Of a stretch of 64,000 nt of DNA, positions 23,282 through 63,405 are shown piece after piece. The stretch comes from a bacterium (GTDB lineage: Bacteria > Sysuimicrobiota > Sysuimicrobiia > Sysuimicrobiales > Humicultoraceae). The stretch is taken from positions 14,731-78,730 of the forward strand of contig JBGQGY010000002.1 in NCBI GenBank assembly GCA_041497675.1. Reading direction: 5' to 3'. The first letter of the stretch is position 1. Each line of letters opens with the position of its first letter. The notes below the pieces were generated by a model that made no database searches, was not told where the DNA came from, and worked only from the letters and a program-made list of their open reading frames with translations. The position numbers and the translations under genes are program-made.

Positions 23282-23298
23282 CCGCACATTATGTGCGG
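23282..23298. repeat. Perfect palindrome CCGCACAT-TA-TGTGCGG that spans the stop codon of the AMP-ligase gene, immediately upstream of the ACP gene
   Basis: Read directly from the sequence. The TAA stop (23289-23291) sits in the loop of an 8-bp-arm hairpin. Confidence 0.4.
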
Positions 23299-26026: not shown

Positions 26027-26051
26027 CGACGCAAACGCTCCATGTCCTGCA

Positions 26052-35032: not shown

Positions 35033-35044
35033 ACCGAAACTCGG

Positions 35045-39912: not shown

Positions 39913-39952
39913 CTGTACCGCCTGTCTGAAATCAGACGTCAGCGACACAACG

Positions 39953-43740: not shown

Positions 43741-45663
43741 CTATGTCTGGTTGCCGGGCTTGACCTGCGTCCGACTGTCCTGTTCTGGCGGCAGCGAAAA
43801 ACTGGTCCCGTCGGAGGACAACCGCCGGAGAATGGCCCGGATCCCTATATCGTCCCGGTGCGCAACGAGGTGCTCGAGCTGCTGAAGCGCCAGCCGAACG
43901 ATGACTTCATCAGGTTCGCGCTCATCGACCACCTCAAAGACTCCGGGGAATGGCGACGGCCGCATGGCTTCGCTCGGGGCGGCGAGCTCTTCTTCCAGTT
44001 TTTCACCCGGTCTGATCCCCGTGTAGACTATTGGGATATCCTTGTCCGGCTCGAGCCCCGACAGCCGGATGACTTCGGTTGCCAGGTCCGCAATCCGAAC
44101 GGGCACCCCCATGTCGAGGACGTACAAGGCCTGTTGACGCTCGGACATCGACACTTGAAGGATGAGCAGGACCGCCTCCGTGGGGCTCATGAAGTAGCGC
44201 GTCATATCCGGATGGGTCAGTGTCACCGGCCCGCCATTGCGAATCTGCTCTTGAATCAGCGGCACCAGGCTTCCTCGGCTACCGAGGACGTTCCCAAACC
44301 TCACCGTGAGGAAGCGCGTGCGCCCGCGGCGACTCAGCATATGCACGATCGTCTCGGCGACGCGCTTCGTCGCGCCCATGACGCTCGTCGGCTGTACCGC
44401 CTTGTCCGTCGACACGAGGACAAAGGTCTCGGCCCCATGCCTGACTGCGCCCTCCGCCAACAGCAACGTCCCCAAGACGTTCGTCTTTACGGCCTCGTCG
44501 ACGTCCCGCTCCATCAACGGCACGTGTTTGTACGCCGCCGCATGATAGATGACCCGCGGTTTCACCGAACCGAGGACCCAATCCATCTTGCCTGCATCTC
44601 GGACGTCCGCGATGAGCGTCTGCAACTGCACGTCTGGAACCAGTCGCCTGACGCTCTCTTCCAGTTCAAAGAGCCCGGTCTCGTTCATGTCGAGCGCGAC
44701 AATCTCGCAGCGGGACAAGCGCGCCACTTGGCGGACCAGCTCGCTGCCAATCGACCCTGCTGCGCCCGTAATAAGCACCCGGGTCCCCTGGAGTCGCTCG
44801 GCGATGGTGTCCGTCGCGATGGTGACCTGCGACCTGCCGAGGAGGTCTGTCACCTCGACCTGCCGGATGTCTCTGAGCGTTGCCGTCCCCGTCAGCAGGG
44901 CATTCACGCCTGGGAGAATGCGCATCCGCCTGATACCGGCTCGACGTACACACTCGACGATCCCCCGAACATCCTCGGCCGGGGCGGACGGGATCGCAAT
45001 GAGCACTTCGTCCACCCTATGTTGCGTCACGATATCCCCCATCGCGGTGCGCCCGCCCAGCACGGGGAGACCCCGGACATACGTTCCCCATCTGCCCGGA
45101 TCATCATCGACGAACCCGACGGGTCGGTAGAATCGGTGTGGTGACTCTTCCATCGCCTGGACGATGCGCATACCTGCGGCGCCGGCGCCGACGACGAGGA
45201 TGCGCGTCCCCTGGGTCGCCCCACGCTCCCTGAACCCATCCAGCTGTCTCTGCAAAAGCCGCCTGCTGATTCGGAGCAGACCCACACCAAAGAGCGTCAA
45301 CAGGAAGTCCATCGCCAAAACCGACCGCGGAAATCCCCAAAACGGCCGAAGCGACCTGAGAAACACGAGGCTCGCCGCAATCGACAGGCTCGACGTACCG
45401 GCGGCTTTGATCGTATTCACCAGCTCGGGGAGACCGACTGATCGCCATGACACCTTATAGAGTCGGAAGGCCCAATGCCAAACCGCCTTAATAGGGAGAA
45501 AGAGGAGCAACAGCACCGGGAAGTAGTTCCAATAGAGCGCAGGAATGGCCCCATCGAATCGGATTAGGAATGCCAGGACGAGCGCAGCGACCCACACGAT
45601 AAGATCGCCGGCCACGAAGATCGCGACCCGACGTACACCTGGGCGTAAGCGCATGCGCCTCAA
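43741..45663 (-). CDS. Membrane-anchored NDP-sugar 4,6-dehydratase/epimerase (CapD/PglF/WbpM family)
   Basis: It has four N-terminal TM helices and two Rossmann regions (VLVVGAGAAG, VLITGAAGSIGSEL), plus the SDR catalytic motifs STDKAV and YxxxK. Confidence 0.9.
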   Translation of the reverse strand: MRRMRLRPGVRRVAIFVAGDLIVWVAALVLAFLIRFDGAIPALYWNYFPVLLLLFLPIKAVWHWAFRLYKVSWRSVGLPELVNTIKAAGTSSLSIAASLVFLRSLRPFWGFPRSVLAMDFLLTLFGVGLLRISRRLLQRQLDGFRERGATQGTRILVVGAGAAGMRIVQAMEESPHRFYRPVGFVDDDPGRWGTYVRGLPVLGGRTAMGDIVTQHRVDEVLIAIPSAPAEDVRGIVECVRRAGIRRMRILPGVNALLTGTATLRDIRQVEVTDLLGRSQVTIATDTIAERLQGTRVLITGAAGSIGSELVRQVARLSRCEIVALDMNETGLFELEESVRRLVPDVQLQTLIADVRDAGKMDWVLGSVKPRVIYHAAAYKHVPLMERDVDEAVKTNVLGTLLLAEGAVRHGAETFVLVSTDKAVQPTSVMGATKRVAETIVHMLSRRGRTRFLTVRFGNVLGSRGSLVPLIQEQIRNGGPVTLTHPDMTRYFMSPTEAVLLILQVSMSERQQALYVLDMGVPVRIADLATEVIRLSGLEPDKDIPIVYTGIRPGEKLEEELAAPSEAMRPSPFPGVFEVVDEREPDEVIVRLALQQLEHLVAHRDDIGIRAILRRLSSDGTSFSLPPEQDSRTQVKPGNQT

Positions 45664-50239: not shown

Positions 50240-51424
50240 TCAAACCGCCGCGCTGGCCTTGAGCCCATCCTTGAGCGTCTGGGCAATCGTGGAGATGTCG
50301 TCCCTTTGCAGACCGTTGAAGAACGGCAACGCGACCACGCGACGGCTCGCGTCTTCGGCTACAGGGAAGTTCCCCTTCTGATACAGCCCGAACTTCTGGA
50401 AATACGGCTGAAGGTGGAGCACTGGGAAGTAGGCCCTGCTCGCAACGCCCCGGCTGGCAAGAAAGTGCATCAGGCCGTCGCGATCGACCGCAGCGGCAAC
50501 CCGCACCACATAGACGAACCAGTTGACCCGCGCCCACGGCTGCGCAGCCGGCAGGGTCAGCTCCGCGATGTCCCCGAGCAACGCCGCATATAGCGCCACC
50601 ACCTGGCTGCGCCTGGCTACGAGCGTCTCGAACCGCTTCATCTGCGCCACACCAAGGGCCGCAGAGAGCTCGTCCATTCGATAGTTGAACCCGAGGACAT
50701 CGTGCCGTAGCCACTCGGCCCCCGCTGCGCGGCCCTGGTTGCGGGCGCTACGGCAGTAGGCGGCGATCTCATCGTCATCGGTCACGATCATGCCGCCTTC
50801 ACCCGTCGTGATCTGTTTGTTCGGATAGAAGGCGAAGATCGCCACCTCGGCTAACGCCCCCGACTTGAGCCACTGCCCGTGGACGGCCGAGTAGTACTCG
50901 GAGCCGAAAGCCTCAGCGGTGTCGTCCAAGAACCTCACGCCGTACCGATTGGCCAGCGCGCGAAATTCGTCCATCTTCACCGGATGGCCGAAGACGTCTA
51001 CGGGGAGAATCCCTGCGAGCGGCCGGCCGGTCGACCGGCGGATCATCTGGCCGGACACGGGACGGTATTCACGTTCGATGAACGCGCCGACCCTCTCGGG
51101 ATCCATATTCAAGGTCGCCGGATCAACGTCGACGAACACCGGGTGCGCCCGCTCCATGAACAGAATGTTGCTCGTCGCCGCGAAGGTAAACGGTGTCGTG
51201 ATGACCTCGACGCCTTCCGTAAACCCCAGCGCCCGTCCGGCCAGGTGGAGACCGGCAGTCCCGCTGCTGACGGCAATGGCATGCCGCCGGCCCAGATAGG
51301 TCGCCATCATCCCTTCAAACTCATCGACCTTGGGACCCAGGCTCAGCCACGGCGTTTTTAGGACGCCGAGCACTTCCTGGATCTCAACATCGGTAATATC
51401 CGGCCGTGATAGAGGCAGACTCAT
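50240..51424 (-). CDS. PLP-dependent sugar aminotransferase (DegT/DnrJ/EryC1/StrS family, PglE-like)
   Basis: It has the DegT-family motifs (AIAVSSGTAGLHLA and SFYPNKQITTGEGGMIVTDD). Start ATG 51424 overlaps the upstream stop (ATGA). Confidence 0.9.
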   Translation of the reverse strand: MSLPLSRPDITDVEIQEVLGVLKTPWLSLGPKVDEFEGMMATYLGRRHAIAVSSGTAGLHLAGRALGFTEGVEVITTPFTFAATSNILFMERAHPVFVDVDPATLNMDPERVGAFIEREYRPVSGQMIRRSTGRPLAGILPVDVFGHPVKMDEFRALANRYGVRFLDDTAEAFGSEYYSAVHGQWLKSGALAEVAIFAFYPNKQITTGEGGMIVTDDDEIAAYCRSARNQGRAAGAEWLRHDVLGFNYRMDELSAALGVAQMKRFETLVARRSQVVALYAALLGDIAELTLPAAQPWARVNWFVYVVRVAAAVDRDGLMHFLASRGVASRAYFPVLHLQPYFQKFGLYQKGNFPVAEDASRRVVALPFFNGLQRDDISTIAQTLKDGLKASAAV

Positions 51425-52113
51425 GGCTCTCTCCTTTGCGGTGCCGTCCACGCGACAGGGGCAGGCCCGCCGATTCGGCGACCCGGCCAATCAGGCACCA
51501 GTCGCGCAAAGACCATCCGACCGAGTTTCGGCGCACACCCCGCGAGCGGCGTAGCAACCAGAACCCCAAGGTCGGTCAACCACGTACGACGCCGGACATA
51601 CGCCAGTTCGAGCGCCACCTTCTTCGGCAGCACGATCTCGAAATAGGCGGTCTCGGGATCCGCCGCTCGGCCCAAGAGCTTTTCTTCGTGCACGAAGACC
51701 AGTTGCGCGATGCCCGTCATGCCGGGGCGGGCCGCGTAGACCTGTCGCGCTTGATCGGGCGGAATGGCCGCGACCTCGTTCGGTGTCAGGGGGCGCGGTC
51801 CGACCAGGCTCATCTCGCCGCTCACCACGTTCAGCAATTGCGGCAGTTCATCGAGCTTGGTAGCGCGCAGCACCCGGCCGATCGGCGTGATGCGCCGGTC
51901 ACCCCGTATCGTGATCGTCCCGCCGGCCGCCGCGTCCTCGATCATTGTTTGAAACTTCAGGATCTCAAACGGCCGCAGCGCCCGGCCGATCCGTGTCTGC
52001 CGGAAGAACACGCGGCGTGTCGTCAGCCAGTTGAGCGCAGCGATGACACCAAACACCGGGGCTGTCAGGATCAGGAAGGTGCACGCGACCAGCACGTCGG
52101 TCAGACGTCGCAT
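51421..52113 (-). CDS. Small monotopic phosphoglycosyl transferase (bacterial sugar transferase, PglC/WecP-like initiating enzyme)
   Basis: A 230-aa protein with an N-terminal re-entrant helix and the conserved motifs DELPQL and SLVGPRP. Confidence 0.85.
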   Translation of the reverse strand: MRRLTDVLVACTFLILTAPVFGVIAALNWLTTRRVFFRQTRIGRALRPFEILKFQTMIEDAAAGGTITIRGDRRITPIGRVLRATKLDELPQLLNVVSGEMSLVGPRPLTPNEVAAIPPDQARQVYAARPGMTGIAQLVFVHEEKLLGRAADPETAYFEIVLPKKVALELAYVRRRTWLTDLGVLVATPLAGCAPKLGRMVFARLVPDWPGRRIGGPAPVAWTAPQRREP

Positions 52114-52123
52114 GTGAGTGTCT

Positions 52124-52750
52124 TCACGACGGCACGCGCGATTCCGCCGGTAACCGGTTCCCCAGCGTGATCACGTAGACAGACGCGCTCTCGCCCTGGT
52201 GGATCTCAGCACGATGCAGCAATGTGAACCCCGAGCGTTCATACACACCCGCTGCCGCGACGTTGTCGACGGCGGTAGTGACGCGCACCCGCTCCACCCC
52301 ACGCTGGGAAAACTCCTCAAGCACTGCGCGCACCAGCCCGTCGGCGGCGCCGGCGCCGCGGGCCTCCGGGTCCAACGCGATCGACAGCAGTTCGGCTTCT
52401 GGAAGCGCTCCCGCCGCCGCGTACCGGGACGTCTCAAAGAGACGGCGCAGCCCGCCTCCGACGATCTTCTTGAACACGATCCGCGCAGCCAACGACCAGT
52501 TCCGCAACACGAACGTCCGGTAGAACCGCCGCCAGTGCACGACGGCGGTGCAGTACCCGACCGGCCGACCATCCCGCTCGGCGATAAACGCAAAGCCCGA
52601 GGGCGAATCCAGCAGCGTCCGGTAGAACGTCTCAACGAACCCCGGACCCATGCCCGACAGCAGCCCCCACGGGATCTGCGCCAGGTGGAGCGCCGCAATC
52701 GCGCCGCTATCGGCCGCTGACGCTTTCCTGATTGAGACCGATACGGCCAT
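52124..52750 (-). CDS. GNAT-family N-acetyltransferase
   Basis: The acetyl-CoA binding region reads ...GAGAADGLVRAVLEEF.. The start is trimmed to MAVSVSIR. Confidence 0.6.
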   Translation of the reverse strand: MAVSVSIRKASAADSGAIAALHLAQIPWGLLSGMGPGFVETFYRTLLDSPSGFAFIAERDGRPVGYCTAVVHWRRFYRTFVLRNWSLAARIVFKKIVGGGLRRLFETSRYAAAGALPEAELLSIALDPEARGAGAADGLVRAVLEEFSQRGVERVRVTTAVDNVAAAGVYERSGFTLLHRAEIHQGESASVYVITLGNRLPAESRVPS

Positions 52751-54335
52751 CCACTGCCGCCTGTGTGAGAAATGGAAGGAGCTTGCCACGGCCCGTGATG
52801 AGCGGCTCGCGGCGCATGATTCTGATGGTCTCTGCCTGACGCCATAGTGGTGGCATCATCTGACGCGGCCGCGTCGGATCGCGCAGTTCCTCGATGAACC
52901 TCGCCCGTACTCGATCCTCATCGATCCGCCCCACCGACGGGTTGATGATCAGGTACAGCCGTGTAAGATGCTGCTCGTCCTCGGCTTCCACGAGCTGGTA
53001 GTCCGTGCTTCTGCCGCCGAACTCCCGGGGCAGGACCTCCTCAAGGATGTGCACACAATCGGTGCCAAGTACCGTCGCGCCTTCCCCGGTGAGTTTCGAA
53101 AAACTCCGAATAGTGTCGAAGTGCGTGTGAAAGCCCAGTTCACCCCACAGGCATCCACAAGATCGTTCGGTCACGTGTGCGAAGTCATCGCTCTCTGCGT
53201 TGATCAAGATCTTGGAGCTCGATATCAGGAGCGTGGTCAGGATCAACGCCTCGACCGCCTGCCCATCGGGCAGCGTGCGCCGATCGTGCAGGAGCCCGAA
53301 GCTGTCGGCCATGAAATGCACGTCGTCGATTGCCGTTGGCTGACCGCAGGCGCTCCCCACGGAGCCGAACTCTGTCAGCCCGTACCGCCCCGCGATTCGC
53401 GCACCGGCGTGGACAACCTCGGCGCGCTTCCCGGACGTCAGAGGCTCGCCGCTCACGATCAGTGTCACGCGGTCGAGGTCCGTCCCGCGTTGGCCCGCCA
53501 GTGCGGCCAGGCGCGTCGCCGCGCTGGGAGTGGTCGCTACGACACACTTTCCGTAGCGCGCGCGGACGGCCACGATCGCATCCACGACCGCCGCCGCGCC
53601 CGACAACGGGACATGCTCGAGCGGCGGCAACCGAAGTCCACGCGTCAGCCCCATCAGCCGGGCCAACGTGAACATCGTTTGGTGCAGTTGAGGTACTCTG
53701 TACGCTGAGAGATTTGTCAGGCTAAACCATCGCGCGGCCGCACGGCCGGCGTGGGCCAACGACAGCCACCAGTTGATACCGGCATCGCGCGGCAGCCAGA
53801 TGATCACCGGCCATGTACTCACACCAAGGGCCTCCATGAGCAGCAACCGGGCTGGTCCCCGCTGGACAGCAAGATAATTCAGCGATCCCGGCACCAGGGA
53901 GGCCTGACCGGTCGTTCCACCGGTGCGAACCTCAAATGACGGTACCAGCGTTGGGTTGTTGAAGTCGGCCTCTGTAGTTTCGAGCGCGAAATCGCCCCGG
54001 CGAATACGGGTCCGACACTTCAATTCCTCGAACGTGAGGTACACGCCGTCTTCTAACAGTGTCCTCAATGTCTCCTCGAGACCATGTCGCCGGACGTGTG
54101 CTTCAAGGCGGTCGGGTGTCCATCCAGCCCACTGTAGGAGTCGACGGTACGGACTCCTCGGGTAGGGCCAGATTGTCTTTCGCACGACCCCGACGAACAT
54201 CTCTGCGCGGGCGGACAACCGGGCGCGCACCAGGGCCTTTGCATCATCAACCGTCGAAAACCGGTACATCAGCGACGCCAGGCCGCCGGCAATCCGGGCG
54301 GCCGCTGGGAGGGTCGCAAGAGGCCGTAGACTCAT
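52707..54335 (-). CDS. CapK/PaaK-like adenylate-forming enzyme, paralog of 38338..39912
   Basis: It carries the motif FEVRTGGTTGQAS and is co-linear with its paralog over more than 450 aa. Confidence 0.65.
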   Translation of the reverse strand: MSLRPLATLPAAARIAGGLASLMYRFSTVDDAKALVRARLSARAEMFVGVVRKTIWPYPRSPYRRLLQWAGWTPDRLEAHVRRHGLEETLRTLLEDGVYLTFEELKCRTRIRRGDFALETTEADFNNPTLVPSFEVRTGGTTGQASLVPGSLNYLAVQRGPARLLLMEALGVSTWPVIIWLPRDAGINWWLSLAHAGRAAARWFSLTNLSAYRVPQLHQTMFTLARLMGLTRGLRLPPLEHVPLSGAAAVVDAIVAVRARYGKCVVATTPSAATRLAALAGQRGTDLDRVTLIVSGEPLTSGKRAEVVHAGARIAGRYGLTEFGSVGSACGQPTAIDDVHFMADSFGLLHDRRTLPDGQAVEALILTTLLISSSKILINAESDDFAHVTERSCGCLWGELGFHTHFDTIRSFSKLTGEGATVLGTDCVHILEEVLPREFGGRSTDYQLVEAEDEQHLTRLYLIINPSVGRIDEDRVRARFIEELRDPTRPRQMMPPLWRQAETIRIMRREPLITGRGKLLPFLTQAAVDGRIGLNQESVSGR

Positions 54336-55522
54336 CTCCCTGCCGCCTCATCGCCGTGGTTATACCCGAAACCATCCACGGCGCGTCCCCGCGCCAGCAA
54401 CATGCGGTACACGTCGAGGATCTGCCCGATGATGCGGCGTTCGTCAAACGCGTCCAGCGCTTTCTTCCGGCTCGCCTGCCCGAACCGGCGCCGCATCTGC
54501 GGGTCATCGATCAGTTGCACGATCGCCCCCTCGAGCGCCCCGACATCTCTTGGCGACACCAGGAAGCCGTTGTCTCCTGCCGTCACGACCTCACGGCATC
54601 CGCGGATGTCGGTGAGGACCAGCGGCAGCCCCATGGCGGCCGCCTCAACCGCAGAACGCGGGAACCCCTCACGGTACGACGCCAGCACAAACAGGTCCAT
54701 CGCAGCATAGAGATCGCGCACGTCGCGCCGCAGGCCAAGGAAGCGGATCACGCCGCGGGTTTCCAAATCCGCAATCGTCGCCTGCGGGATCGCGTCGCTC
54801 TTGTCCTCATCGCGCGGGCCGATCGCGATGAACCGCACGTCGCGGCCGGCAGCCCGAATGCGCTCAGCCGCCTCAAATACCTCGCGGAGGCCCTTCTCCC
54901 ACACCAGCCGCCCTACCATCCCGACTACGACCGTCGCTTCATCGATGCCCAGCGCGGCCCGCACAGTGCCCCGGTCGACCGTTGCCGGGTCAAAGACCGT
55001 GAGATCCACGCCATTGCCAATGTACGCCGACCGGTCCGGCCGAGCAATCTTCAGCGCGCGTAGCAAATCCAGATCCTCTCGACTCTGGCAGAATTCAAAG
55101 TCCGAGCAGGCGGCGGCGATCCTCTCCATCGTCAGATATATCGCCCGCCGGACCGCACCACCGTCAGTCCCGTACAAGCCATGCACGGTGTTCACGACGA
55201 CCGGTGTCCCGGCCAGCCGTGCCGCGATCCGCCCAAGCACCCCGGTCTTCGGATTGTGCGTGTGGACGATGTCGAATCGGTGTCGTCGAAACAGCCTGAA
55301 CAGGTCGAGGAATGCCCTCGCGTCGGCCGCGGGCGCCCAGGATCGCCGGAGCGCGGCAATCTCCAGATGACGGATGCCTTGGGCCTGCAGATCCGCCCCC
55401 CACGCGCCCGCCGCGCTGATCCCCGTCGGCTCAAATCCGGCCTCACGGTATGCCCGGAGCTGATTCCCGAGCAACAGGGCCAGACTGATGTCCGACGTGG
55501 TCACGTGTGCGAGCTTTGGCAT
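54332..55522 (-). CDS. Family 4 glycosyltransferase
   Basis: It has the GT4 C-terminal motif (LFVLASYREGFPRSAVEAAAMGLPLVLTD). The start is trimmed to MPKLAHV. Confidence 0.85.
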   Translation of the reverse strand: MPKLAHVTTSDISLALLLGNQLRAYREAGFEPTGISAAGAWGADLQAQGIRHLEIAALRRSWAPAADARAFLDLFRLFRRHRFDIVHTHNPKTGVLGRIAARLAGTPVVVNTVHGLYGTDGGAVRRAIYLTMERIAAACSDFEFCQSREDLDLLRALKIARPDRSAYIGNGVDLTVFDPATVDRGTVRAALGIDEATVVVGMVGRLVWEKGLREVFEAAERIRAAGRDVRFIAIGPRDEDKSDAIPQATIADLETRGVIRFLGLRRDVRDLYAAMDLFVLASYREGFPRSAVEAAAMGLPLVLTDIRGCREVVTAGDNGFLVSPRDVGALEGAIVQLIDDPQMRRRFGQASRKKALDAFDERRIIGQILDVYRMLLARGRAVDGFGYNHGDEAAGR

Positions 55523-55526: not shown

Positions 55527-55973
55527 TCACCGGGTGATTTCAACGAGCGCAACCCCGGCACTCACCTGTTCCCCGTCTTGTCTGACCGCCCATATCTCCG
55601 CTTCAACGGTTCTCGCCCCATCCTGAGTCGTCCTCACATCACGGATGCACCCGGCGCACCGCACGGTATCGCCGGGACGTATCAGACCCGTGTGCCGGAC
55701 AGACAGGCGGCGGACCCATCCACTCGGTCCAACCCAACTGGTGATCATTCGCACCAACAGCGCAGTACGATGGTTCCCGCTTTGGACGACGTCAGATTGG
55801 TCCATGTACTCCAGGGCGTATGCGCGATCGTAGTGCAGCCGAATCCAGTTCTCCTGGTACCCGGCCCACCGCACGAAATCGGTCAGCGAAAGCGGGCCGA
55901 TCTCGAGGCCTGGGATTTCGGCTCCAGCGACGGGTGTGGGTGCTTGCTGTGCTCGCATGACGGGGCCGCCCAT
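55527..55973 (-). CDS. Hotdog-fold (MaoC-like) dehydratase subunit
   Basis: Hotdog-fold core (IRPGDTVRCAGCIRDV). ATG 55973 overlaps the CoA-transferase stop (TGATG); the track ORF starts 53 codons upstream. Confidence 0.55.
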   Translation of the reverse strand: MGGPVMRAQQAPTPVAGAEIPGLEIGPLSLTDFVRWAGYQENWIRLHYDRAYALEYMDQSDVVQSGNHRTALLVRMITSWVGPSGWVRRLSVRHTGLIRPGDTVRCAGCIRDVRTTQDGARTVEAEIWAVRQDGEQVSAGVALVEITR

Positions 55974-57121
55974 CACACCCTGGCACCGTCCCGCGCTCCC
56001 GGAACCCTGGGTGCGGGTACAACACCGGCTGCCTCGAGCCGGGCGATGTCCTCGTGTGAGAACCCCGCCTCGCGCAGGACCGTCGCGGTCTGCGCGCCGG
56101 GACCCGACACTCCTGAGGGGGGCGTGAGCCACGGCGTCGTCAACACCGGTACGTCCTGACCGTCGACGCGATGAAAGAACCTCCGCGCGCGTAGGTGCGG
56201 GTCATGAAGCAGAGCCTCTATGTCGTGCACCGGCGCCACGGGAATTCCGCGGGCCTGTGCCATCTCGGACAGCTCCGCTTTCGTGAACCGCCGCGCCCAC
56301 GACTCGAGCACGCCAAAGATTTCGGCCTGGTGCTCCATCCGAACCCGTTCGTCGTTCAGGGCAGCGTCGCGCAACCGCTCATCTCCAACCATCTCAACCA
56401 GGGTCTCCCACATACGTCGTTCGTTGGCCGAGATCACCACGTACCCATCGCGGCACGCAAGTGCGCCCGAGGCAGCGATGTGTGCGTGCCGGTTGCCCCC
56501 CCGCTTGACGACACGTCCCGAGAACGCCGCTTCGTACAGACCTTGCTGCATGAACGTGGCGAGCGCCTCATGCGCGCTCACGTAGATCAATCGACCCGAT
56601 CCACTATCGCGCGCGTGCCGATATCCGAGGAGACAGGCCAGCGCCGCATACGTGGCCGTGACCGCGTCAGCGAGCCCACCGCCGAGCAGACAGGGCGCCT
56701 GACCGGGCATGCCCGTGATGGACATCAAACCACTCTGCGCGTAGCGGACGATCTCAGCGCTCGTGCGGCCGGCGCCCGCCGTCGGCGCAAATGGTCGGAC
56801 GGCCACCCAGGTGAGTCTGGGACTACCGGCCCGGCAGCGTGCATACACGTTCTCTGCGGCATCGAAGACGGGTTCGATACCTTCCACCACTGCGTCGGCC
56901 ACCCCGCACAGGCGCGCCAGCACCTCGACCCCTTCGTCGCGTCGCAGATCGATTCCGACGCTCCGCTTGCCGGCGTCCAGACATCGAGCGGGGGCTTCGG
57001 GACCTTCACGTCGGCCCGGCACGTCGATACGCACTACATCGGCGCCCAGGTCGGCCAGCAGCCGTGTCGCGTAGGCAACCGCGCCGTCGGTAATGTCCAG
57101 GACACGAAGCCGCTCCGTCAT
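55973..57121 (-). CDS. Family III CoA-transferase (CaiB/BaiF)
   Basis: It has a family III N-terminal Rossmann region (LRVLDITDGAVAYATRLLADLGADVVRID). The start is trimmed to ATG 57121 (MTERLRV), which overlaps the upstream stop (TGATG). Confidence 0.85.
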   Translation of the reverse strand: MTERLRVLDITDGAVAYATRLLADLGADVVRIDVPGRREGPEAPARCLDAGKRSVGIDLRRDEGVEVLARLCGVADAVVEGIEPVFDAAENVYARCRAGSPRLTWVAVRPFAPTAGAGRTSAEIVRYAQSGLMSITGMPGQAPCLLGGGLADAVTATYAALACLLGYRHARDSGSGRLIYVSAHEALATFMQQGLYEAAFSGRVVKRGGNRHAHIAASGALACRDGYVVISANERRMWETLVEMVGDERLRDAALNDERVRMEHQAEIFGVLESWARRFTKAELSEMAQARGIPVAPVHDIEALLHDPHLRARRFFHRVDGQDVPVLTTPWLTPPSGVSGPGAQTATVLREAGFSHEDIARLEAAGVVPAPRVPGARDGARV

Positions 57122-57669
57122 CACACGCCCAGCGTTCGCGCCGTCGTCTGGTGCACGACCGCCACCGGCTGCCCGCTCTGATCCGAGTAGCGGCGCTCTT
57201 CCGTGATAAACACGGCAGCACCCGTCCGCCCGTCTTTCAGCGCGATGTCCGTGATCTTGAACCTGACGGTGAGCCAGTCGCCGATGCGTAATGGCCGAAT
57301 CCACTCGATGTCGGTTGCGGCATTAAGCCGCCCGCGTTCGCCCGGGACCACGATGGTAGCCGCCAACCCACCCAAAGATGGAAACTCACGTTCGCCCCGG
57401 TTGTCGATAACATCCCGGCCGGGCTCGGGCCGCAAAATGTCGAGGATCATGGCGGGTGGCGCGAGGGCTCCCACGCGGCTCGGGTTGGATTCTGGATCGA
57501 CCGCGCCCCACAGCGGATTGCCGTCGCCGGCCGCGTTCACATAGCGGCGCACGTCGCTCCACTCGATGGGTCCCGGCGCCCGCACGGGTTCACTCTCATG
57601 CCCGATCCACCGCCGCAGGGCGTTGAGAATGTCTGCTGGTGTCTGCGAGACTGGTCCCATAGCCGACAC
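57121..57669 (-). CDS. Hotdog-fold (MaoC N-terminal-like) dehydratase subunit
   Basis: A 182-aa hotdog fold (WIRPLRIGDWLTVRFKITDI). Its GTG start overlaps the upstream TAG. Confidence 0.65.
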   Translation of the reverse strand: MSAMGPVSQTPADILNALRRWIGHESEPVRAPGPIEWSDVRRYVNAAGDGNPLWGAVDPESNPSRVGALAPPAMILDILRPEPGRDVIDNRGEREFPSLGGLAATIVVPGERGRLNAATDIEWIRPLRIGDWLTVRFKITDIALKDGRTGAAVFITEERRYSDQSGQPVAVVHQTTARTLGV

Positions 57670-58874
57670 TACTGAAGCGCGCCGGAAGCCTTCAAACCGG
57701 CAATCTCCGCGTCGCTCATCCCAACCACCTGACGCAGGACCTCATCGGTGTGCTGGCCCAACAGCGGGCCCGCGTGGTCGAGCCTGGCCGGCACGCCCTC
57801 AATGTGTATTGGGTTGGAGAGCATGGGCATCTCGCCAATCGCCGGATGAGTGATGACCTGTGTCAACGGTGCATACGTCGCAAGATCGGCCAAGGCCCCC
57901 ACGTTGGTGCGGACCGCCGCGGCCGGCACCCCTGCAACCTGGAACACGCGTTCCACCATACGGGCGTCTCGCCCGAGGGTCCAGGTCTCCAGCCGGCGAT
58001 CGATGTCTTCTGCCGCGGCGCGCCGGCCTTCCAGCGTCTGATAGCGCGCGTCGTCGAGCACGCCGTCCCCCACGATCCGCACCAGCGCCTCCCACTCCGT
58101 AGCGCTGCCGACGCTAATCACACACCATTCGTCGTCTCCCGCGCAGCGATAACATCCCTGCGGCACGCGGTGCGCCGATCGGTTGCTCTGACGCGCCGGC
58201 CCGCCGTTGCCTTGCGCCTCTGCCATTAACGCTCCCAATGGCAGTGCATTCGACTCGTACTGGCTCAGATCGATCCAGCAGCCCTCACCGGTGTGATCGC
58301 GCCGCTCTAAGGCCGCGGTGACAATGACCGCGGCGTGCAGCCCCGCCATGAAGTCCGCCCACGAGTTCGAGACACCGATCGGCGGATCACCCGCGCGGCC
58401 GGTGGCCAGCATCAATCCCGACAGCGCTTGGATCACAGCGTTGAAGCTCACCCACTGCGCGCACGGGCCGGTATGCCCCAACCCCGCCATGCTCACGTAG
58501 ATCAGCTGGGGATTGCGCGCGCGCAGGCGATCCGGCCCAAGCCCCAGTCGCTCCATGACCCCTACACTGAAGTTCTCAGTCAGGACATCACACTGCTGGG
58601 CCAAAGCGATCGCGACCTCGGCTCCCTGAGGATGCTTGAGGTTGATGGCGACCGAACGCTTGTTGCGGTTCAAACTGGCGAAGAGCGTGCTCCCTTCCTG
58701 CTCGCGCGGGCCGTCCGGTTTGAAGGGGCCCAACCGCCGCCCTCCCTCTACCGCCGTCGCGCTCTCAACCTTGATGACGTCCGCGCCGAAGTCCGCGAGG
58801 AGTCCCGTGGCAAACGGGCCGGTGACCACGTGCCCGAAGTCCAGGATGCGGATGTGCTCGAGCGGTCGGATCAT
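57669..58874 (-). CDS. Family III CoA-transferase (CaiB/BaiF), second subunit or paralog
   Basis: It has the motifs IRILDFGHVVTGPFATGLLADFGADVIKVE and LGPDRLRARNPQLIYVSMAGLG, and the gene overlaps the DUF35 gene (58871..59314) by 4 nt. Confidence 0.9.
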   Translation of the reverse strand: MIRPLEHIRILDFGHVVTGPFATGLLADFGADVIKVESATAVEGGRRLGPFKPDGPREQEGSTLFASLNRNKRSVAINLKHPQGAEVAIALAQQCDVLTENFSVGVMERLGLGPDRLRARNPQLIYVSMAGLGHTGPCAQWVSFNAVIQALSGLMLATGRAGDPPIGVSNSWADFMAGLHAAVIVTAALERRDHTGEGCWIDLSQYESNALPLGALMAEAQGNGGPARQSNRSAHRVPQGCYRCAGDDEWCVISVGSATEWEALVRIVGDGVLDDARYQTLEGRRAAAEDIDRRLETWTLGRDARMVERVFQVAGVPAAAVRTNVGALADLATYAPLTQVITHPAIGEMPMLSNPIHIEGVPARLDHAGPLLGQHTDEVLRQVVGMSDAEIAGLKASGALQ

Positions 58875-59314
58875 GCGTCCCGCGACGACACGACACTCGG
58901 GATCGGTTCAAACAACGGCAGCGCGTACTGCTCGGTGATCGACCGGACCACCACACGTACCGGCAGGCCGATGTGCACCGATTCCGGCGGGCAGTTCACG
59001 ACATTGCTAACCATCATCGGCCCTTCGTCGAGTTCAATCGCGGCATACACATACGGCACAGGAAACGCCGGCGAGTGCTGCACGCGCTGCACCGTGAAGG
59101 TGAAGACCTTGCCCTGGCCGCTGGCCCGCGTCCACATGAGGTTTTCAAGATATGGATCATTCGAGTGTTCACGGCACCCCGCCGGAGGCCACCGCCAGGT
59201 CCCGCAGCGACGACAGCGAAGGAGCAGAAACTCGCCGCGCCGCAACCCCTCCCAGAACGGTCTCATCTCCTCGGTTGGGTTGGGGACGGCTCCCTGCCAC
59301 GCGACGGTGCTCAT
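58871..59314 (-). CDS. DUF35 Zn-ribbon/OB-fold protein (scaffold partner of SCP-x-type thiolases)
   Basis: It has a four-Cys zinc ribbon (CRRCGTWRWPPAGC) and an OB fold. ATG 59314 overlaps the thiolase stop (ATGA). Confidence 0.7.
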   Translation of the reverse strand: MSTVAWQGAVPNPTEEMRPFWEGLRRGEFLLLRCRRCGTWRWPPAGCREHSNDPYLENLMWTRASGQGKVFTFTVQRVQHSPAFPVPYVYAAIELDEGPMMVSNVVNCPPESVHIGLPVRVVVRSITEQYALPLFEPIPSVVSSRDA

Positions 59315-60519
59315 GCTGCGTGGCCCCGCGGGTGTTTCGTCAGAACGATCGTGGAGTGAATCGAGCACATCTGGCCCGAGAGGACCTCCGCGCCGTGCCC
59401 GGATACCAGCGCGACGTCCGCATCGGGCACCTGCCGCGCGCCACCCTCACCTTGCACCTGGATGATCGCCTCGGCAAAGCCCGTCAGGTTGCCCAAATGG
59501 TGCGATGAGAGCAGCCCGCCACCGGTGTTGACCGGCACCTCGCCGCCCGGCCCGGTCCGCATTTCCGCGGCAAACGCCCCGCCTTCACCCTTCCGGCACC
59601 ACCCATAGTCTTCCAGCTGAATGATGACTTCACCGGTGAAGCAGTCGTAGAGTTGCGCGACATCCACATCCGCCACGCTGATGCCGGCCTGGCGGAACGC
59701 GGCGTCGCGCGACGTGCGCACCGCCAGCGTCGTGTAGTTGGTCCGCTCCCACCAGAGGTCGCTCATCTGCTCGCCGAAGCCGATCCCCGCGACGTAGACG
59801 GGTGCGTTCCGCGCATCTCGCGCGCGGTCGGTCGTCGTAACGACAAACGCCGTCCCGCCATCGCTCTGCAGGCAGATATCGAACAACCGGTACGGCCAGA
59901 CGACCACCGGGGATTGCTGATGCTCGTTGAGTGTCAGAGGCCGGCCGTGCATGTAGGCCCGCGGGTTTCGGTTTGCCCACTGCCGCGTGGCCACGGCCAC
60001 AGCGCCGAGCTGCTCGCTCGTCGTCCCAAACTCGTGCATGTGCCGGCTGGCCAGCAGACCGTGATAGGATGCTGCATTCGCACCAAACAACGGGGCAACC
60101 GCGTTGGCCTTCGGCGCATACGCCTGCCCGCGCTTCCCCGACACCTGCTGGGCCGCCTGTGCGCGGCTCCAGTCGTCCCGTGCGCCCGCGCACACGACAT
60201 AGTCGGCGATACCATGATCCAACAACCCGGCCGCGGCAATCAAAGCGTGTGCGGCGTATTCACCGCCGCGTCCAACATTTTCCATGTACAGGTTGACGGG
60301 CAGGTTCAGCACCCTGGCAAACGAGTCGTGATGCCTGGGACGGATCCCGCCCCCCGTGTCGCTCAACATCTGGATCGCGGCGCCGATATCTGTCGCCTGC
60401 AGGCCGGCGTCATCGATCGCCAGACGGGCAGCCTCGACCTCGAGCATCAGCACCGATCGCCCCGGCAGGTGTCCAACGTCGGTCACGCCGAGCCCGATCA
60501 CCGCGTACCGGCCTGTCAT
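59311..60519 (-). CDS. Thiolase-like / SCP-x-type (non-specific lipid-transfer protein) thiolase or aldolase
   Basis: A 402-aa protein with the thiolase fold and an N-terminal YAVIGLGVTDVG region. It is co-encoded with the DUF35 partner. Confidence 0.85.
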   Translation of the reverse strand: MTGRYAVIGLGVTDVGHLPGRSVLMLEVEAARLAIDDAGLQATDIGAAIQMLSDTGGGIRPRHHDSFARVLNLPVNLYMENVGRGGEYAAHALIAAAGLLDHGIADYVVCAGARDDWSRAQAAQQVSGKRGQAYAPKANAVAPLFGANAASYHGLLASRHMHEFGTTSEQLGAVAVATRQWANRNPRAYMHGRPLTLNEHQQSPVVVWPYRLFDICLQSDGGTAFVVTTTDRARDARNAPVYVAGIGFGEQMSDLWWERTNYTTLAVRTSRDAAFRQAGISVADVDVAQLYDCFTGEVIIQLEDYGWCRKGEGGAFAAEMRTGPGGEVPVNTGGGLLSSHHLGNLTGFAEAIIQVQGEGGARQVPDADVALVSGHGAEVLSGQMCSIHSTIVLTKHPRGHAA

Positions 60520-61409
60520 CCTCTGATGAATGATTCAGGCGGCTTTGGGCCCCACAGGTTCACCGCAGCAGATCGTCCGCTTACAGGATCCCAGACACCA
60601 GGCCGGTAGGTCTGCTCGTCTGGAATGTGCGCGGCCTCAGCCTGGAGTTCCCACCGGATTCCCCAAGGATCGACGAAGTACACGAAGATGCTGTGTCCGG
60701 GGCCGTGACGGCCCGGGCCGAACTCAACGGAGACGCCGTGCGCCTCGAAATGATTGAGCATTCGTAGGACATCGTCCCATGACTCGATCTCGAAGCCAAT
60801 GTGATGCACTCCTTTGGTCGCCGATTGCACCAGCGCGATGGTCGCGTGCTCGCTGGTGCACCGCACCCAGGAAAACTGCCCCGGGATCTGATCGGACAGA
60901 CGAAAGTCCATAAACTGCTGCCACCATTGCGCACTCGCGCCGGCATCAGCAGCCTTCACGTTGATGTGCGAGAGCTTGATCAGGTTCGCCGGCGGAGTGC
61001 CGGCAGGCCGCGCGACGGGCGCCTGAGACGCGACCAGTTCGCACAGATAGCCGTCGGGATCCTGCAGGCGCACTGCCGGACCGTGCAGCGGCTCGAACAC
61101 CGCGGGGCCGTCGATGCTCAGCCCGCGGCGGCGGAGTTCCACCGCGGCGGCGGCCAGTGCGGACGCATCGGGTACCGTCAATCCGTAGTGATCAAGGCGA
61201 GTGGACTCCCCCGGATACAACACGAGTTCATGGTGCGCAACCATCGGGGCCCCGGTGGGCAGCGTGCTCATCACAATCGCGCCCGTCGCTCGATCGTCCC
61301 GGGTGATACCCAGACCGAGGACCCGCGCATAGTAGGCCGCTGTCGCCCGAGGATCCGGGACGCGCAGGGTGACGTGATCGAATCCGCTTACCGGCAGTCG
61401 CTCGGACAT
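60516..61409 (-). CDS. Two-domain VOC-family protein (glyoxalase / extradiol-dioxygenase fold)
   Basis: It has two VOC modules (GFDHVTLRV...; LSHINVK...HHIGFEIES). The start is trimmed to MSERLPV. Confidence 0.65.
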   Translation of the reverse strand: MSERLPVSGFDHVTLRVPDPRATAAYYARVLGLGITRDDRATGAIVMSTLPTGAPMVAHHELVLYPGESTRLDHYGLTVPDASALAAAAVELRRRGLSIDGPAVFEPLHGPAVRLQDPDGYLCELVASQAPVARPAGTPPANLIKLSHINVKAADAGASAQWWQQFMDFRLSDQIPGQFSWVRCTSEHATIALVQSATKGVHHIGFEIESWDDVLRMLNHFEAHGVSVEFGPGRHGPGHSIFVYFVDPWGIRWELQAEAAHIPDEQTYRPGVWDPVSGRSAAVNLWGPKPPESFIRG

Positions 61410-61447: not shown

Positions 61448-62353
61448 TCACTGAACCGGGCCACTTCCGGGACTCACTCTGGAACTGGCTCCGGCGGCGC
61501 CGCGCACCCCGCCGTTCTCGGAAGATGCGCTGCCGGCGCCGAGGAGGGCCTTGGTGGCCCGAAACAGCCAGAACCCATCGGTGCGCAAAACGGGGTATCG
61601 CCACAGCCGAGAGAGATCAAGGTCAAGGTACGCGTTCTTTCCCGGACCGCCCAGCGTCACCGTCGAGTACCGTGCAGCCACGAGCCGCTCCGTCTCCGGC
61701 GACCACCAGCCCCAAGGGTACGCAAAGTGTCTCGGCGCAGCGCCCAGCCGTTGTTCGATGAGTTGGTCGCATTCCTCGAGCTCGCGCATGGCGTCGTCCG
61801 CCCCGACCCGCGAGAGGTCGGCATGCGTGGCGGTGTGGCCGCCGAACGTGATGAGACCGGAGTGCATCATGCTCGCAGCCATCTCCCATGTCATCGGCTT
61901 TGGTCGCTGCTCCACAGGGGATTGCCGGAACCCCCCAAAATCAAACGGGCATTGTGTCTCGACGTACCTCGCCGGGAGATACACCGTTGCCGGGAGCTCG
62001 AACCGCCGCAGGACCGGGTAGGCGAACTCATACGTATCGCGGTACCCGTCATCGAACGTGATCGCGACGACGTCGCGGTTCGCATGCCGAGCCGCGCGGC
62101 GGGTGGCAATCTGGGCCACTTCATCGAGCGAGACGACCAAGCAGTTCCGCCGCAAGTAACGCATCTGTCGTTCGAACACGCTCACACCGAGGTCGACATC
62201 GCTTCGAGTCCCGCCACCAATCCGGTGGTAGAGCAACACCACCACGCCGGGCCGCCGCTCGTGTTGCCAGATCCGGAACGGCAGCATGCTCCACCGTACG
62301 AGGCTGCGCGCGACGCGCCCTTGCCCACGTATCCAGGCGCCGAGTCCGTCCAT
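61448..62353 (-). CDS. Polysaccharide deacetylase (CE4, NodB-homology domain), second copy
   Basis: It has the NodB motifs (VVAITFDDGYRDTYEF; FGGHTATHADL). The start is trimmed to about 62353. Confidence 0.75.
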   Translation of the reverse strand: MDGLGAWIRGQGRVARSLVRWSMLPFRIWQHERRPGVVVLLYHRIGGGTRSDVDLGVSVFERQMRYLRRNCLVVSLDEVAQIATRRAARHANRDVVAITFDDGYRDTYEFAYPVLRRFELPATVYLPARYVETQCPFDFGGFRQSPVEQRPKPMTWEMAASMMHSGLITFGGHTATHADLSRVGADDAMRELEECDQLIEQRLGAAPRHFAYPWGWWSPETERLVAARYSTVTLGGPGKNAYLDLDLSRLWRYPVLRTDGFWLFRATKALLGAGSASSENGGVRGAAGASSRVSPGSGPVQ

Positions 62354-62361
62354 CGTCGTGT

Positions 62362-63405
62362 CTAAAAGACCTCGAGATCGCCGAGGGCGAGACGCCACGA
62401 TGCGAAGGACGTCGGGTCGAAGCCTAGGTCATCGGCCAGAGGCCTGATGGTAAGGTGCGGACCGCCGGGCAGTGGCAGAAATCCTGTTCGAAGGAGGACT
62501 CGCCGGTGCGGGGTGTTCCACGCACAGTGGGCGACGGCGTAATCCGCGCGGGTCAGCCCGAGCAGTTCGCGGACGACGCGTTGCCCGTGGCGCTCATCGG
62601 CCATCAACAGCTCGCACACCATCAGTTCCGACAGCCCGCGCCGATGTGTCAGCCGAAAGATCACAGCCGCTTGGGGTCGCCCGGCCCCGACCCAATGGGC
62701 GCCATACTGCAACGAGGGCACTTGGGCGTACCGCCACCGAAGAAACGTCGTCGATCGCGCGGTCCGGACACCGTCAGCCAAGTGCACATCGTCACGAGCC
62801 AGCAGGTCCGTCACACCGGGCTCGTTCTGTAGCATGTCGTCGACGGAGCGCCACCGGCCGAGCGTGTCCTGTTCACCGTCGCCGGTTCCGTTCCTGGCCC
62901 CGCGCCACCGCGAGCCAAGCACGGACCGGACCATGCGAAAGGCGTGCAGCGGTCGAACGAATACCAGCGCCCGCCCCACGTGGGTCCACCCCAGCTTGAG
63001 ATATCCGGGCATGCTGTACCGGTTTGGCGTGTTGAACACGAGATGCACCCCGGTCGCCCGCGCGCGTTCAAGACAGGCCGCTGTCAGGTTGGAGAAGATT
63101 CCCATTCGCTGGTATTGCGGGTGTGTCGCGGTGTCCACGGCTCGGACACCAAGAACCGTCTGCCCCCGCGCGCGAAACTGCCAGCGCAGGAAGGCGCGCA
63201 ACCCCACGATCCGGTCATCGTCGGCCAGCAGCATCAGGGATTGGCCAAACGGGTTGTCTCGATGCTTCCAACGGAAGAACGCCGTCGAGCGCTCGAACGC
63301 CCGCCCGCTGCCCAACGTGAGATTGAGCAATCCCAGGACCGGCGCCTCGTCTGCGGGCTCGTATTCACGGATGGTAAAACGCGGTTTGACCGTCGCCACC
63401 GTCAC
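62362..63405 (-). CDS. GNAT-like acyltransferase (large GNAT/FemAB-like fold)
   Basis: It has a GNAT core (HPQYQRMGIFSNLTAACLERARATGVHLVFNTP). Its start overlaps the upstream GT4 stop (ATGA). Confidence 0.55.
   Translation of the reverse strand: MTVATVKPRFTIREYEPADEAPVLGLLNLTLGSGRAFERSTAFFRWKHRDNPFGQSLMLLADDDRIVGLRAFLRWQFRARGQTVLGVRAVDTATHPQYQRMGIFSNLTAACLERARATGVHLVFNTPNRYSMPGYLKLGWTHVGRALVFVRPLHAFRMVRSVLGSRWRGARNGTGDGEQDTLGRWRSVDDMLQNEPGVTDLLARDDVHLADGVRTARSTTFLRWRYAQVPSLQYGAHWVGAGRPQAAVIFRLTHRRGLSELMVCELLMADERHGQRVVRELLGLTRADYAVAHCAWNTPHRRVLLRTGFLPLPGGPHLTIRPLADDLGFDPTSFASWRLALGDLEVF

Follow-up and report, generated by a model that had tools for sequence, protein, structure and literature searches.

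What does a set of coenzyme A (CoA)-dependent enzymes do in the middle of a glycan operon? The question is raised by a block of six genes in a stretch of 64,000 nucleotides (nt) from a bacterium of the phylum Sysuimicrobiota (contig JBGQGY010000002.1, positions 14,731 to 78,730), which is referred to here as the window. The block encodes two family III CoA-transferases (CoAT1 and CoAT2), two hotdog proteins (HD1 and HD2), a DUF35 protein (DUF35), and a thiolase-fold protein (ALD), and it is preceded by a gene for an extradiol dioxygenase-like protein (VOC). VOC and the six block genes are one seven-gene enzymatic unit. With a probability of about one half, this unit is the descendant of a phenylpropionate/cinnamate-type aromatic-acid catabolic cluster that has become fixed in the glycan operon, where it would now make or trim a non-sugar substituent. 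An earlier reading of the locus (the sequence-only reading) had named the block families, with ALD as an SCP-x-type thiolase, and had suggested side-chain beta-oxidation or retro-aldol cleavage of the ChsH/Ltp2 or Bbs kind, possibly serving the glycan; it had missed the membership of VOC in the unit and the Hca-like genes in relatives.

The block extends from the HD2 stop codon to the ALD start codon (55527-60519), in a part of the window, starting at about 17.4 kb and reaching to its end, where nearly all genes are on the minus strand. VOC and the block genes are all on the minus strand, and the block is transcribed in the order ALD, DUF35, CoAT1, HD1, CoAT2, and HD2; all six are backed by Pfam, HD2 alone lying just under the cut-off. 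As read from the sequence, the junctions VOC/ALD, ALD/DUF35, and DUF35/CoAT1 are each an ATGA with 4 nt of overlap, CoAT1/HD1 is a TAGTG with 1 nt, and HD1/CoAT2 and CoAT2/HD2 are each a TGATG with 1 nt. The proposal that every junction overlaps by 1-4 nt is accordingly correct from VOC through HD2, but not at CE4/VOC, where a 36-nt spacer separates the VOC gene from the deacetylase gene in front of it. Downstream, the overlap claimed between the HD2 stop codon and the start of the following GT4 glycosyltransferase gene depends on the start codon chosen: it is 35 nt if the GTG at 55561 is used, whereas the ATG at 55522, the one that homologues support, leaves a 4-nt spacer. The same junction is a 4-nt overlap in the relatives L004 and L098, and the next junction in the window, between GT4 and the 542-amino acid (aa) gene, is again an ATGA with 4 nt of overlap. 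No promoter or terminator was found that sets the block apart from its neighbours: between 52 and 64 kb, promoter-like and terminator-like sites showed no excess over shuffled expectation, and none isolates the block. The gene order of the block was found again in at least 13 independent contigs, which is far beyond chance.

Families and active-site residues of the unit

The ALD protein (59311-60519; 402 aa) matched the Pfam family Thiolase_C_1 (6.5e-40). Its best PDB match was 4u4e (1.5e-63), and Ltp2, from the Ltp2-ChsH2(DUF35) complex 6ok1, matched at 7.7e-55; weaker matches were obtained for 9myr (YDCY motif; 3.8e-35) and BbsB (1.3e-25), and those to true thiolases were likewise far weaker. 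The NCBIfam BbsB model gave 93 bits against an equivalog cut-off of 750. At the position of the thiolase nucleophile, ALD has R84-G85-G86, invariant in 20 sequences (ALD and 19 homologues, down to 54% identity); none of these carries a nucleophilic Cys there, and the alignments with Ltp2 and 4u4e show VGRGGEY. The motif Y291-D292-C293-F294 is invariant as well; in the alignments it falls on Tyr294 of Ltp2 and on the YDCY of chain 9myr_A. His341 takes the place of the second catalytic Tyr344 of Ltp2. Mutagenesis of the bile-acid aldolase CtSal identified the Tyr and Cys of this motif as its catalytic pair; Ltp2 uses YDHF plus Tyr344, and SCP-2 thiolases have HDCF (PMC12329534, 2025). The catalytic roles of the ALD Tyr and Cys were transferred from that study. 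Because the nucleophilic Cys is absent and the YDCF motif is invariant, ALD is predicted not to be a thiolase, and because the Tyr344 position is His341, it is classed as a retro-aldolase of the Sal/SLP type rather than the Ltp2 type. The SCP-x-type thiolase of the sequence-only reading is replaced by this assignment.

The DUF35 protein (58871-59314; 147 aa) combines OB_ChsH2_C (2.1e-20) and zf-ChsH2 (4.8e-07) in a stand-alone protein with a zinc ribbon and an OB fold. Its gene has ATGA overlaps at both ends and adjoins ALD in every locus, and DUF35 is presumed to be the partner of ALD. The zinc ribbon, C-x2-C-x9-C-x2-H, is invariant in the clade and differs from the usual C4 ribbon.

The two hotdog subunits were modeled with AlphaFold from their family alignments and compared with the PDB using Foldseek. 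HD2 (55527-55973; 148 aa), which scored 25.8 bits against the cut-off of 27 for MaoC_dehydratas, gave a model with a pLDDT of 95, and its top PDB match was to the ChsH1 chains of 4w78/4wnb (4w78_F; TM 0.80/0.92, rmsd 1.5). HD1 (57121-57669; 182 aa; FAS1_DH_region, the N-terminal half of MaoC, 9.5e-13) gave a model with a pLDDT of 84, which matched the ChsH2 chains of 4wnb/4w78 best (TM 0.64-0.72); the next matches were the N-terminal domain of itaconyl-CoA hydratase and HadA. In ChsH1-ChsH2, the Asp/His dyad is on ChsH1 and the bulky steroid is bound by ChsH2 (PMC11321319). In HD2, His47 is invariant among 21 family members, and the canonical Asp position is Asn42 preceded by an invariant Glu41 (YQENWxxxH); more distant relatives carry the canonical GDxNPxH. 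HD1 has the motif GDGNPLW without the catalytic His, and this motif is lost in L010. The models and residues suggest that HD1 is probably the non-catalytic, substrate-binding half and HD2 the catalytic half, and hydratase activity of the pair is plausible but not certain. The HD1 family has 45 detectable members, all at least 58% identical, and a metagenome scan with the HD1 profile returned five short loci consistent with the general pattern. An itaconate/mesaconate-type C5-dicarboxylate pathway, which combines a family III CoA-transferase, a double-hotdog hydratase, and a lyase, was considered because NCBIfam and PDB searches had matched mesaconate and hydroxymethylglutarate CoA-transferases as well as itaconyl-CoA hydratase. 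It was ranked below the ChsH-like reading because ChsH2 and ChsH1 are the top matches of the two hotdog models and the genes nearby encode aromatic-ring enzymes.

Both CoA-transferases belong to family III. CoAT1 (57669-58874; 401 aa; CoA_transf_3, 4e-100) is BbsF-like: its best PDB match was one subunit of benzylsuccinate CoA-transferase (9fn0_B, 2.1e-61), with succinate-hydroxymethylglutarate CoA-transferase next, and the Asp174 (SWAD) presumed to be catalytic is invariant. CoAT2 (55973-57121; 382 aa; CoA_transf_3, 7e-64) is BbsE-like and matched 4ed9 first (3.8e-29) and 9fn0_A, the other benzylsuccinate CoA-transferase subunit, second (1.2e-24). Neither protein reached the NCBIfam equivalog cut-offs. 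The CoAT2 and HD2 genes are fused in L015 and in P0251 (473 aa), where CoA_transf_3 covers residues 8-322 and MaoC residues 352-430, which argues for physical coupling of transferase and hydratase.

VOC (60516-61409; 297 aa) consists of two glyoxalase-fold domains (Pfam Glyoxalase, 1.6e-30) and resembles the type I extradiol dioxygenases. The NCBIfam models for catechol 2,3-dioxygenase (2.5e-33) and HpaD (2.8e-28) both matched below cut-off (115 versus 320 bits). In an alignment with XylE (1mpy), the equivalents of the metal ligands His153, His214, and Glu265 were present, the catalytic His246 and Tyr255 were matched, and His199 was matched within one residue. All these extradiol catalytic residues are invariant in eight clade sequences, and VOC adjoins ALD in every clade locus. 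From these residues, VOC is predicted to be of the bona fide type I extradiol dioxygenase type. A role as a glyoxalase or epimerase acting on CoA adducts was rejected, as the full set of extradiol residues is kept and the nearest relatives lie in ring-hydroxylating dioxygenase clusters.

The family calls of the sequence-only reading were thus borne out by Pfam, and for HD1 and HD2 also by predicted structure, with ALD retained as a thiolase fold. Its retro-aldol alternative and the analogy to ChsH/Ltp2 agree with the fold matches of HD2 to ChsH1 and of HD1 to ChsH2 and with the matches of ALD to 4u4e and Ltp2. The analogy to Bbs, on the other hand, applies to the transferases but not to the thiolase. 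Side-chain beta-oxidation was not upheld: no acyl-CoA dehydrogenase, hydroxyacyl-CoA dehydrogenase, or crotonase was found in or beside the block, either in the window or in the relatives. The absence of dehydrogenases points to a chemistry of CoA transfer, hydration, and retro-aldol cleavage instead of beta-oxidation.

Conservation and probable aromatic ancestry of the unit

A census was taken of 80 genome ALD loci plus contigs, with the neighbourhood defined as 10 kb. ALD homologues number thousands; the full unit, with VOC, both hotdogs, and both transferases beside ALD and DUF35, occurred only where ALD is at least 74% identical, and none of about 75 more distant ALD loci had VOC, hotdog, or glycan genes within 10 kb. 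The seven-gene unit is confined to one clade of uncultivated bacteria. Among the relatives, L015 is classified as Candidatus Fervidifonticultor quartus in the phylum Sysuimicrobiota (CSP1-3), and the protein of its contig also bears an older Armatimonadota label; the other relatives are labelled "Armatimonadota bacterium" or merely "bacterium".

The embedding of the block in a glycan operon proved to be real and conserved. The downstream flank can be seen in 12 loci, and in every one of them the unit is followed by glycan genes (the window, L002, L004, L006, L010, L015, L092, L093, L094, L095, L098, and a 35-kb JGI contig), usually as the string GT4-GNAT-small phosphoglycosyl transferase-DegT-PglF. 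The architecture of the window is matched gene for gene in L004, L010, L011, and L098. The GT4-hotdog junction, whose conservation the sequence-only reading had proposed as a check, recurs as HD2-GT4 adjacency in six loci (L004, L010, L092, L093, L094, and L098) and is one gene removed in L002. Glycan genes also interrupt the module itself: a dTDP-3-amino-sugar cassette, a methyltransferase, and a GT2 are inserted between DUF35 and CoAT1 in L006, and carbamoyltransferase and GDSL genes between HD1 and CoAT2 in the JGI contig. Divergence between loci is about the same for the module proteins as for the flanking GT4, DegT, and PglF (50-85% identity), which fits long joint inheritance.

The relatives also suggest where the unit may have come from. 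The VOC family is very small, with 83 proteins at E<=1e-10 among 5.8 billion. Outside the clade, the closest members are 39-51% identical and belong to classical clusters, where they accompany the alpha and beta subunits of a ring-hydroxylating dioxygenase, a small protein, and an SDR; some of these clusters add a hydrolase, an aldehyde dehydrogenase, or a thiamine pyrophosphate (TPP) enzyme. Within the clade, L092 and L012 have four further genes directly upstream of VOC, namely dioxygenase alpha, dioxygenase beta, an 81-aa protein, and an SDR. The best NCBIfam match of the alpha subunit is HcaE; the beta subunit scores above the subfamily cut-off for the 3-phenylpropionate/cinnamate dioxygenase beta subunit, and the SDR above the equivalog cut-off for 3-phenylpropionate-dihydrodiol dehydrogenase (HcaB type). 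These dioxygenase-SDR genes are 51-57% identical to those of the catabolic clusters L090 and L091, where they likewise accompany an extradiol dioxygenase of the VOC family. One ALD relative, 61% identical, is found in a cluster with Rieske, VanA, LigXa, GST, and Amidohydro_2 genes, which is typical of lignin-derived aromatic catabolism. The Hca-like dioxygenase genes beside the unit suggest that its substrate is probably an aromatic acid.

In L092, the whole dioxygenase and module set lies inside a glycan cluster, with GT4 and a methyltransferase on one side and GT4-GNAT-small phosphoglycosyl transferase-DegT-PglF on the other. In L012 (ALD 80% identical), the upstream region (1-9100) contains a branched-chain-type ABC transporter, an NMT1-type binding protein, a TPP enzyme, the dioxygenase alpha and beta genes, the SDR, and an isochorismatase-family protein. 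A search of the 64-kb window found no ring-hydroxylating dioxygenase and no HcaB-like dihydrodiol dehydrogenase. The relatives look like snapshots of a recruitment, with a catabolic-looking flank in L012, the full aromatic set in a glycan locus in L092, and no ring-hydroxylating dioxygenase in the window. The unit itself looks like a remnant of such an aromatic-acid cluster that was inserted into a glycan operon and retained through speciation with its active sites intact.

The 81-aa protein between dioxygenase beta and the dihydrodiol dehydrogenase was present in L092 (within 3234-6171), L012, L090, and L091. It is 62-82% identical between loci, matches no family, and lacks the Cys/His pattern of a ferredoxin.

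Known systems and the proposed role of the unit

Among characterized systems, the ChsH1-ChsH2-Ltp2 set for the actinobacterial steroid C3 side chain shares with the unit a MaoC hydratase of two different hotdog subunits, of which in the unit one is probably catalytic and the other substrate-binding, and a thiolase-fold aldolase without the nucleophilic Cys that keeps the Tyr of YD(H/C)(F/Y) and has a DUF35 partner. It differs in that DUF35 is the C-terminus of the ChsH2-like subunit, whereas it is a separate protein here; the unit has YDCF instead of YDHF, His341 instead of Tyr344, and Asn instead of the hydratase Asp, and its neighbours are not steroid-catabolic genes but a glycan operon with an extradiol dioxygenase. 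The Shy-Sal system for the proteobacterial bile-acid C5 side chain (CtSal, PMC12329534) resembles the unit in its Tyr-x-Cys dyad, which aligns residue for residue with 9myr_A (YDCY versus YDCF here), in the small or non-Cys residue at the nucleophile position, and in the binding of its aldolase by a DUF35 domain, as is presumed for ALD. However, Shy is a homodimeric MaoC-DUF35 fusion, while the hydratase of the unit is split and predicted to be heteromeric; the zinc ribbon of CtShy is C-x3-H-x8-C-x2-C rather than C-x2-C-x9-C-x2-H, the gene context differs, and ALD is closer in sequence to Ltp2 than to 9myr.

The BbsEF/BbsAB genes for benzylsuccinate in anaerobic toluene degradation also comprise two adjacent family III CoA-transferase genes and a thiolase-fold protein with a stand-alone DUF35. 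In contrast to that system, ALD is predicted not to be a thiolase, equivalents of BbsG, BbsH, and BbsCD are lacking, and an O2-dependent dioxygenase is attached. In the aerobic Hca/Mhp meta-cleavage of phenylpropionate and cinnamate, a hydratase and an aldolase follow ring cleavage, and the HcaE/HcaF-like subunits and HcaB-like dehydrogenase of L092 and L012 lie beside an extradiol dioxygenase. The unit differs from this pathway in that it would use CoA thioesters, a MaoC hotdog hydratase, and a thiolase-fold aldolase in place of MhpC, MhpD, and MhpE, without a C-C hydrolase, and in that it lies in a glycan operon, in the window without the ring-hydroxylating dioxygenase. A fifth system removes the side chain of ibuprofen or phenylacetate: IpfD, an SCP-x thiolase-like protein, and IpfE, a DUF35 protein, remove the acyl-CoA from the ring-dihydroxylated aryl-acyl-CoA to give a catechol, which is then meta-cleaved. 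By enzyme type, its combination of a ring-hydroxylating dioxygenase, DUF35 plus a thiolase-like protein, and an extradiol dioxygenase is the same as in L092 and L012. The Ipf system is not known to include a hotdog hydratase or a family III CoA-transferase, uses a CoA ligase instead, and is catabolic and borne on plasmids or islands.

Beyond the enzyme families, active-site residues, operon structure, and conserved glycan context seen in these loci, we infer a substrate class, an order of steps, and an attachment to the glycan. The BbsEF-like transferase pair, in which CoAT1 would be catalytic and CoAT2 possibly structural, would load CoA onto the carboxylate of a ring-bearing acid. The ChsH2/ChsH1-like heteromeric MaoC hydratase would then hydrate the enoyl-CoA, with HD1 binding the bulky group and HD2 supplying the catalytic His. 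The Sal-type ALD, with Tyr291 and Cys293 and held by the stand-alone DUF35, could split the resulting 3-hydroxyacyl-CoA in a retro-aldol reaction that yields a short acyl-CoA and a carbonyl compound. At some stage, VOC would open the catechol ring of the substrate or of its product. The product, as acyl-CoA or free acid, may finally be attached to the glycan; a likely acceptor would be an amine freed by CE4 or the 4-amino group of a sugar of the bacillosamine type, which the PglF-like dehydratase and DegT would make, and the likely attaching enzyme would be a neighbouring GNAT or the PaaK-like adenylating enzyme. In its full form, an idea offered tentatively, a surface glycan would carry a substituent obtained from an aromatic acid of the phenylpropanoid type by oxidative ring cleavage together with hydration and retro-aldol trimming that depend on CoA. 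The BbsEF-like transferase, the ChsH-like hydratase, and the Sal-like aldolase would then make up a CoA-dependent "lower meta-cleavage" route that was not known before.

Several observations weigh against the recruitment of the unit into glycan decoration. The GNATs may simply use acetyl-CoA. The enzyme families of the unit are all best known from catabolism, and the upstream flank of L012 looks catabolic, with no glycan gene seen up to the contig end inside CoAT2. The window and most relatives have neither the ring-hydroxylating dioxygenase nor the dihydrodiol dehydrogenase that would supply a catechol. The dioxygenase needs O2, and the phylum of the sole classified relative is described as facultatively anaerobic. 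The canonical Asp/His dyad is absent from both hotdogs (Glu-Asn...His in HD2, Asp but no His in HD1), and the Asp of CoAT2 is not invariant, being Asn in L002 and L006.

Part of this evidence would suit the main rival, a purely catabolic cassette, co-transcribed with the glycan locus but without a chemical link to the glycan, that degrades an aromatic acid for carbon and energy. Such a cassette would explain why known members of all the families are catabolic, why clusters for aromatic catabolism hold the nearest relatives of VOC and ALD, and why L012 has transporter, TPP enzyme, and ring-hydroxylating dioxygenase genes upstream. It is nevertheless unlikely in view of the glycan genes in 12 of the 12 visible downstream flanks, the start/stop overlaps with glycan genes, and the interleaving of glycan genes with the module in two loci. 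The dioxygenase and SDR genes have been lost from most loci, yet the seven genes remain there with intact catalytic residues, and a pathway deprived of its upper steps would not be expected to persist. Moreover, no HD1- or VOC-family copy was found together with hotdog genes in a purely catabolic setting, and membership of a catabolic island, which the sequence-only reading had named as an argument against itself, was seen in part for L012 and in none of the other 12 loci.

Aldol and hydration reactions are reversible, and in a biosynthetic context the unit could instead run in the building direction: ALD would join an aldehyde or ketone to acetyl- or propionyl-CoA, the hydratase would dehydrate the product, and the two CoA-transferases, which could load and unload CoA, would release or shuttle the hydroxy-acyl or enoyl acid so formed for acylation of the glycan, leaving VOC a side role or another substrate. 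We regard this as rather improbable, since the characterized Ltp2 and Sal enzymes all cleave, and since the constant adjacency of VOC with intact dioxygenase residues, together with the Hca-like genes in two relatives, points to ring oxidation and not to chain building. Bbs-like or steroid-like beta-oxidation with thiolytic cleavage, which the superficial likeness of the gene set to BbsEF plus BbsAB and the best PDB match of CoAT1 might suggest, is effectively refuted by an ALD without nucleophilic Cys, whose BbsB match is well below those to Ltp2 and 4u4e, and by the missing dehydrogenases and crotonase.

The unit brings together a ChsH/Sal-like hydratase-aldolase and a BbsEF-like transferase in a new combination and in a new context, that of a glycan operon. 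To our knowledge, hydratase-aldolases of the ChsH/Ltp2 and Shy/Sal kinds are known only from steroid and bile-acid catabolism, and extradiol dioxygenases only from aromatic catabolism and a few natural-product pathways. A literature search found no link of DUF35, family III CoA-transferases, or extradiol dioxygenases to polysaccharide clusters, and the description of the phylum mentions neither aromatic compounds nor glycosyltransferases nor exopolysaccharide. If the proposed role is true, it would represent a previously undescribed class of glycan modification and a natural case of a catabolic cassette recruited into biosynthesis, and it would widen the known chemistry of bacterial glycan decoration in a widespread uncultivated lineage of soil and hot springs. 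The YDCF dyad with His341, the C3H ribbon of DUF35, and the Glu-Asn-His hydratase motif are new variants of C-C-cleaving aldolase systems of industrial interest.

Glycan genes around the unit and other parts of the array

Upstream, the block is preceded by a GT4 gene, a 347-aa GNAT (GNAT9), the CE4 deacetylase, and the two-domain VOC protein. Downstream follow GT4, the 542-aa PaaK-like protein, a GNAT, a small phosphoglycosyl transferase, DegT, a Wzx flippase, a GNAT, a GT4, a CE4, and a PglF/CapD-type 4,6-dehydratase, and further downstream in the window carbamoyltransferase, GDSL, GT-C-like, GT2, and methyltransferase proteins. The following genes of these flanks are all on the minus strand. 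The GT4 glycosyltransferase directly downstream of HD2 (54332-55522) matched Glycos_transf_1 (4.6e-35). The 542-aa PaaK-like adenylate-forming protein (52707-54335) was recognized by weak matches (AMP-binding, 0.003; PaaK, 1.6e-4; 9s3l, 0.02); it is conserved in relatives and directly follows HD2 in L002 and L006. The GNAT acyltransferase at 52124-52789 (start uncertain; Acetyltransf_1, 3.4e-16; weak WecD-type matches) is a candidate N-acyltransferase of a 4-amino sugar, and the string of GT4, GNAT, and phosphoglycosyl transferase is kept after the module in relatives. The small phosphoglycosyl transferase (51421-52113) matched Bac_transf (1.9e-49) and EPS_sugtrans (7e-51), the DegT/PseC/LegC-type sugar 4-aminotransferase (50240-51424) matched DegT (1.6e-107), LegC (3e-86), and PseC (7e-82), and the PglF/CapD-type UDP-HexNAc 4,6-dehydratase (43741-45663) matched Polysacc_synt_2 (2e-98) and PseB (2.6e-44).

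The flank holds a bacillosamine-type set (PglF/E/D/C-like) of 4,6-dehydratase, 4-aminotransferase, N-acyltransferase, and small phosphoglycosyl transferase, in which the acyltransferase has the GNAT fold and not the left-handed beta-helix of PglD. The NCBIfam matches of these genes are all below cut-off, and the assignment is one of sugar type rather than of the exact sugar.

The CE4 deacetylase/amidase directly upstream of VOC (61448-62398, minus strand) matched Polysacc_deac_1 (5.7e-22). GNAT9 (62362-63405, minus strand; Acetyltransf_9, 1e-12) lies upstream of CE4 and keeps this position in relatives, the order GNAT9-CE4-VOC being found also in L004, L010, L011, and L098. CE4 is next to VOC in L090 and one JGI contig as well; the notion of CE4-VOC as an ancestral pair was dropped, the window CE4 having no detectable similarity to the CE4 of L090.

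A second group of minus-strand genes looks like a (halo)pyrrole-2-carboxyl-carrier-protein cassette (19074-26948). It comprises a CmlS-like FADH2 halogenase (19074-20387), an 88-aa carrier protein (22969-23235), an amino-acid adenylation domain above the TIGR01733 cut-off (23289-25046), and a PigA/RedW-like prolyl-carrier-protein dehydrogenase (24881-26026; 466 bits against a PigA cut-off of 500). Two alpha/beta hydrolases of the exosortase-EPS "hydr1/hydr2" kind (20433-21386 and 26052-26948) lie in the same region, and the array contains a second Wzx flippase. A cassette of this type, if true, would imply a pyrrolyl ester or amide decoration of the glycan. The prolyl dehydrogenase, adenylation domain, carrier protein, and halogenase suggest that the glycan is already rich in natural product-like acyl decoration.

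Further observations concern single genes. A carbamoyltransferase (Carbam_trans_N/C), a 103-aa SxtJ-like protein, and two GDSL-family proteins are found at 36251-38334 and 33857-36229, and homologous families are the ones inserted between HD1 and CoAT2 in the JGI relative. A 633-aa open reading frame at 38338-40239 has no Pfam match and is a paralogue of the 542-aa PaaK-like protein, 56-60% identical to homologues of the latter in relatives; L002 and L006 each have two PaaK-like copies, one directly after HD2 and one before VOC. Finally, a 446-aa protein (41164-42504), also without a Pfam match, is 44% identical to a 439-aa protein located between GNAT and CE4 in L002 and L006, which indicates that the gene content of the cluster is conserved even where the order differs.

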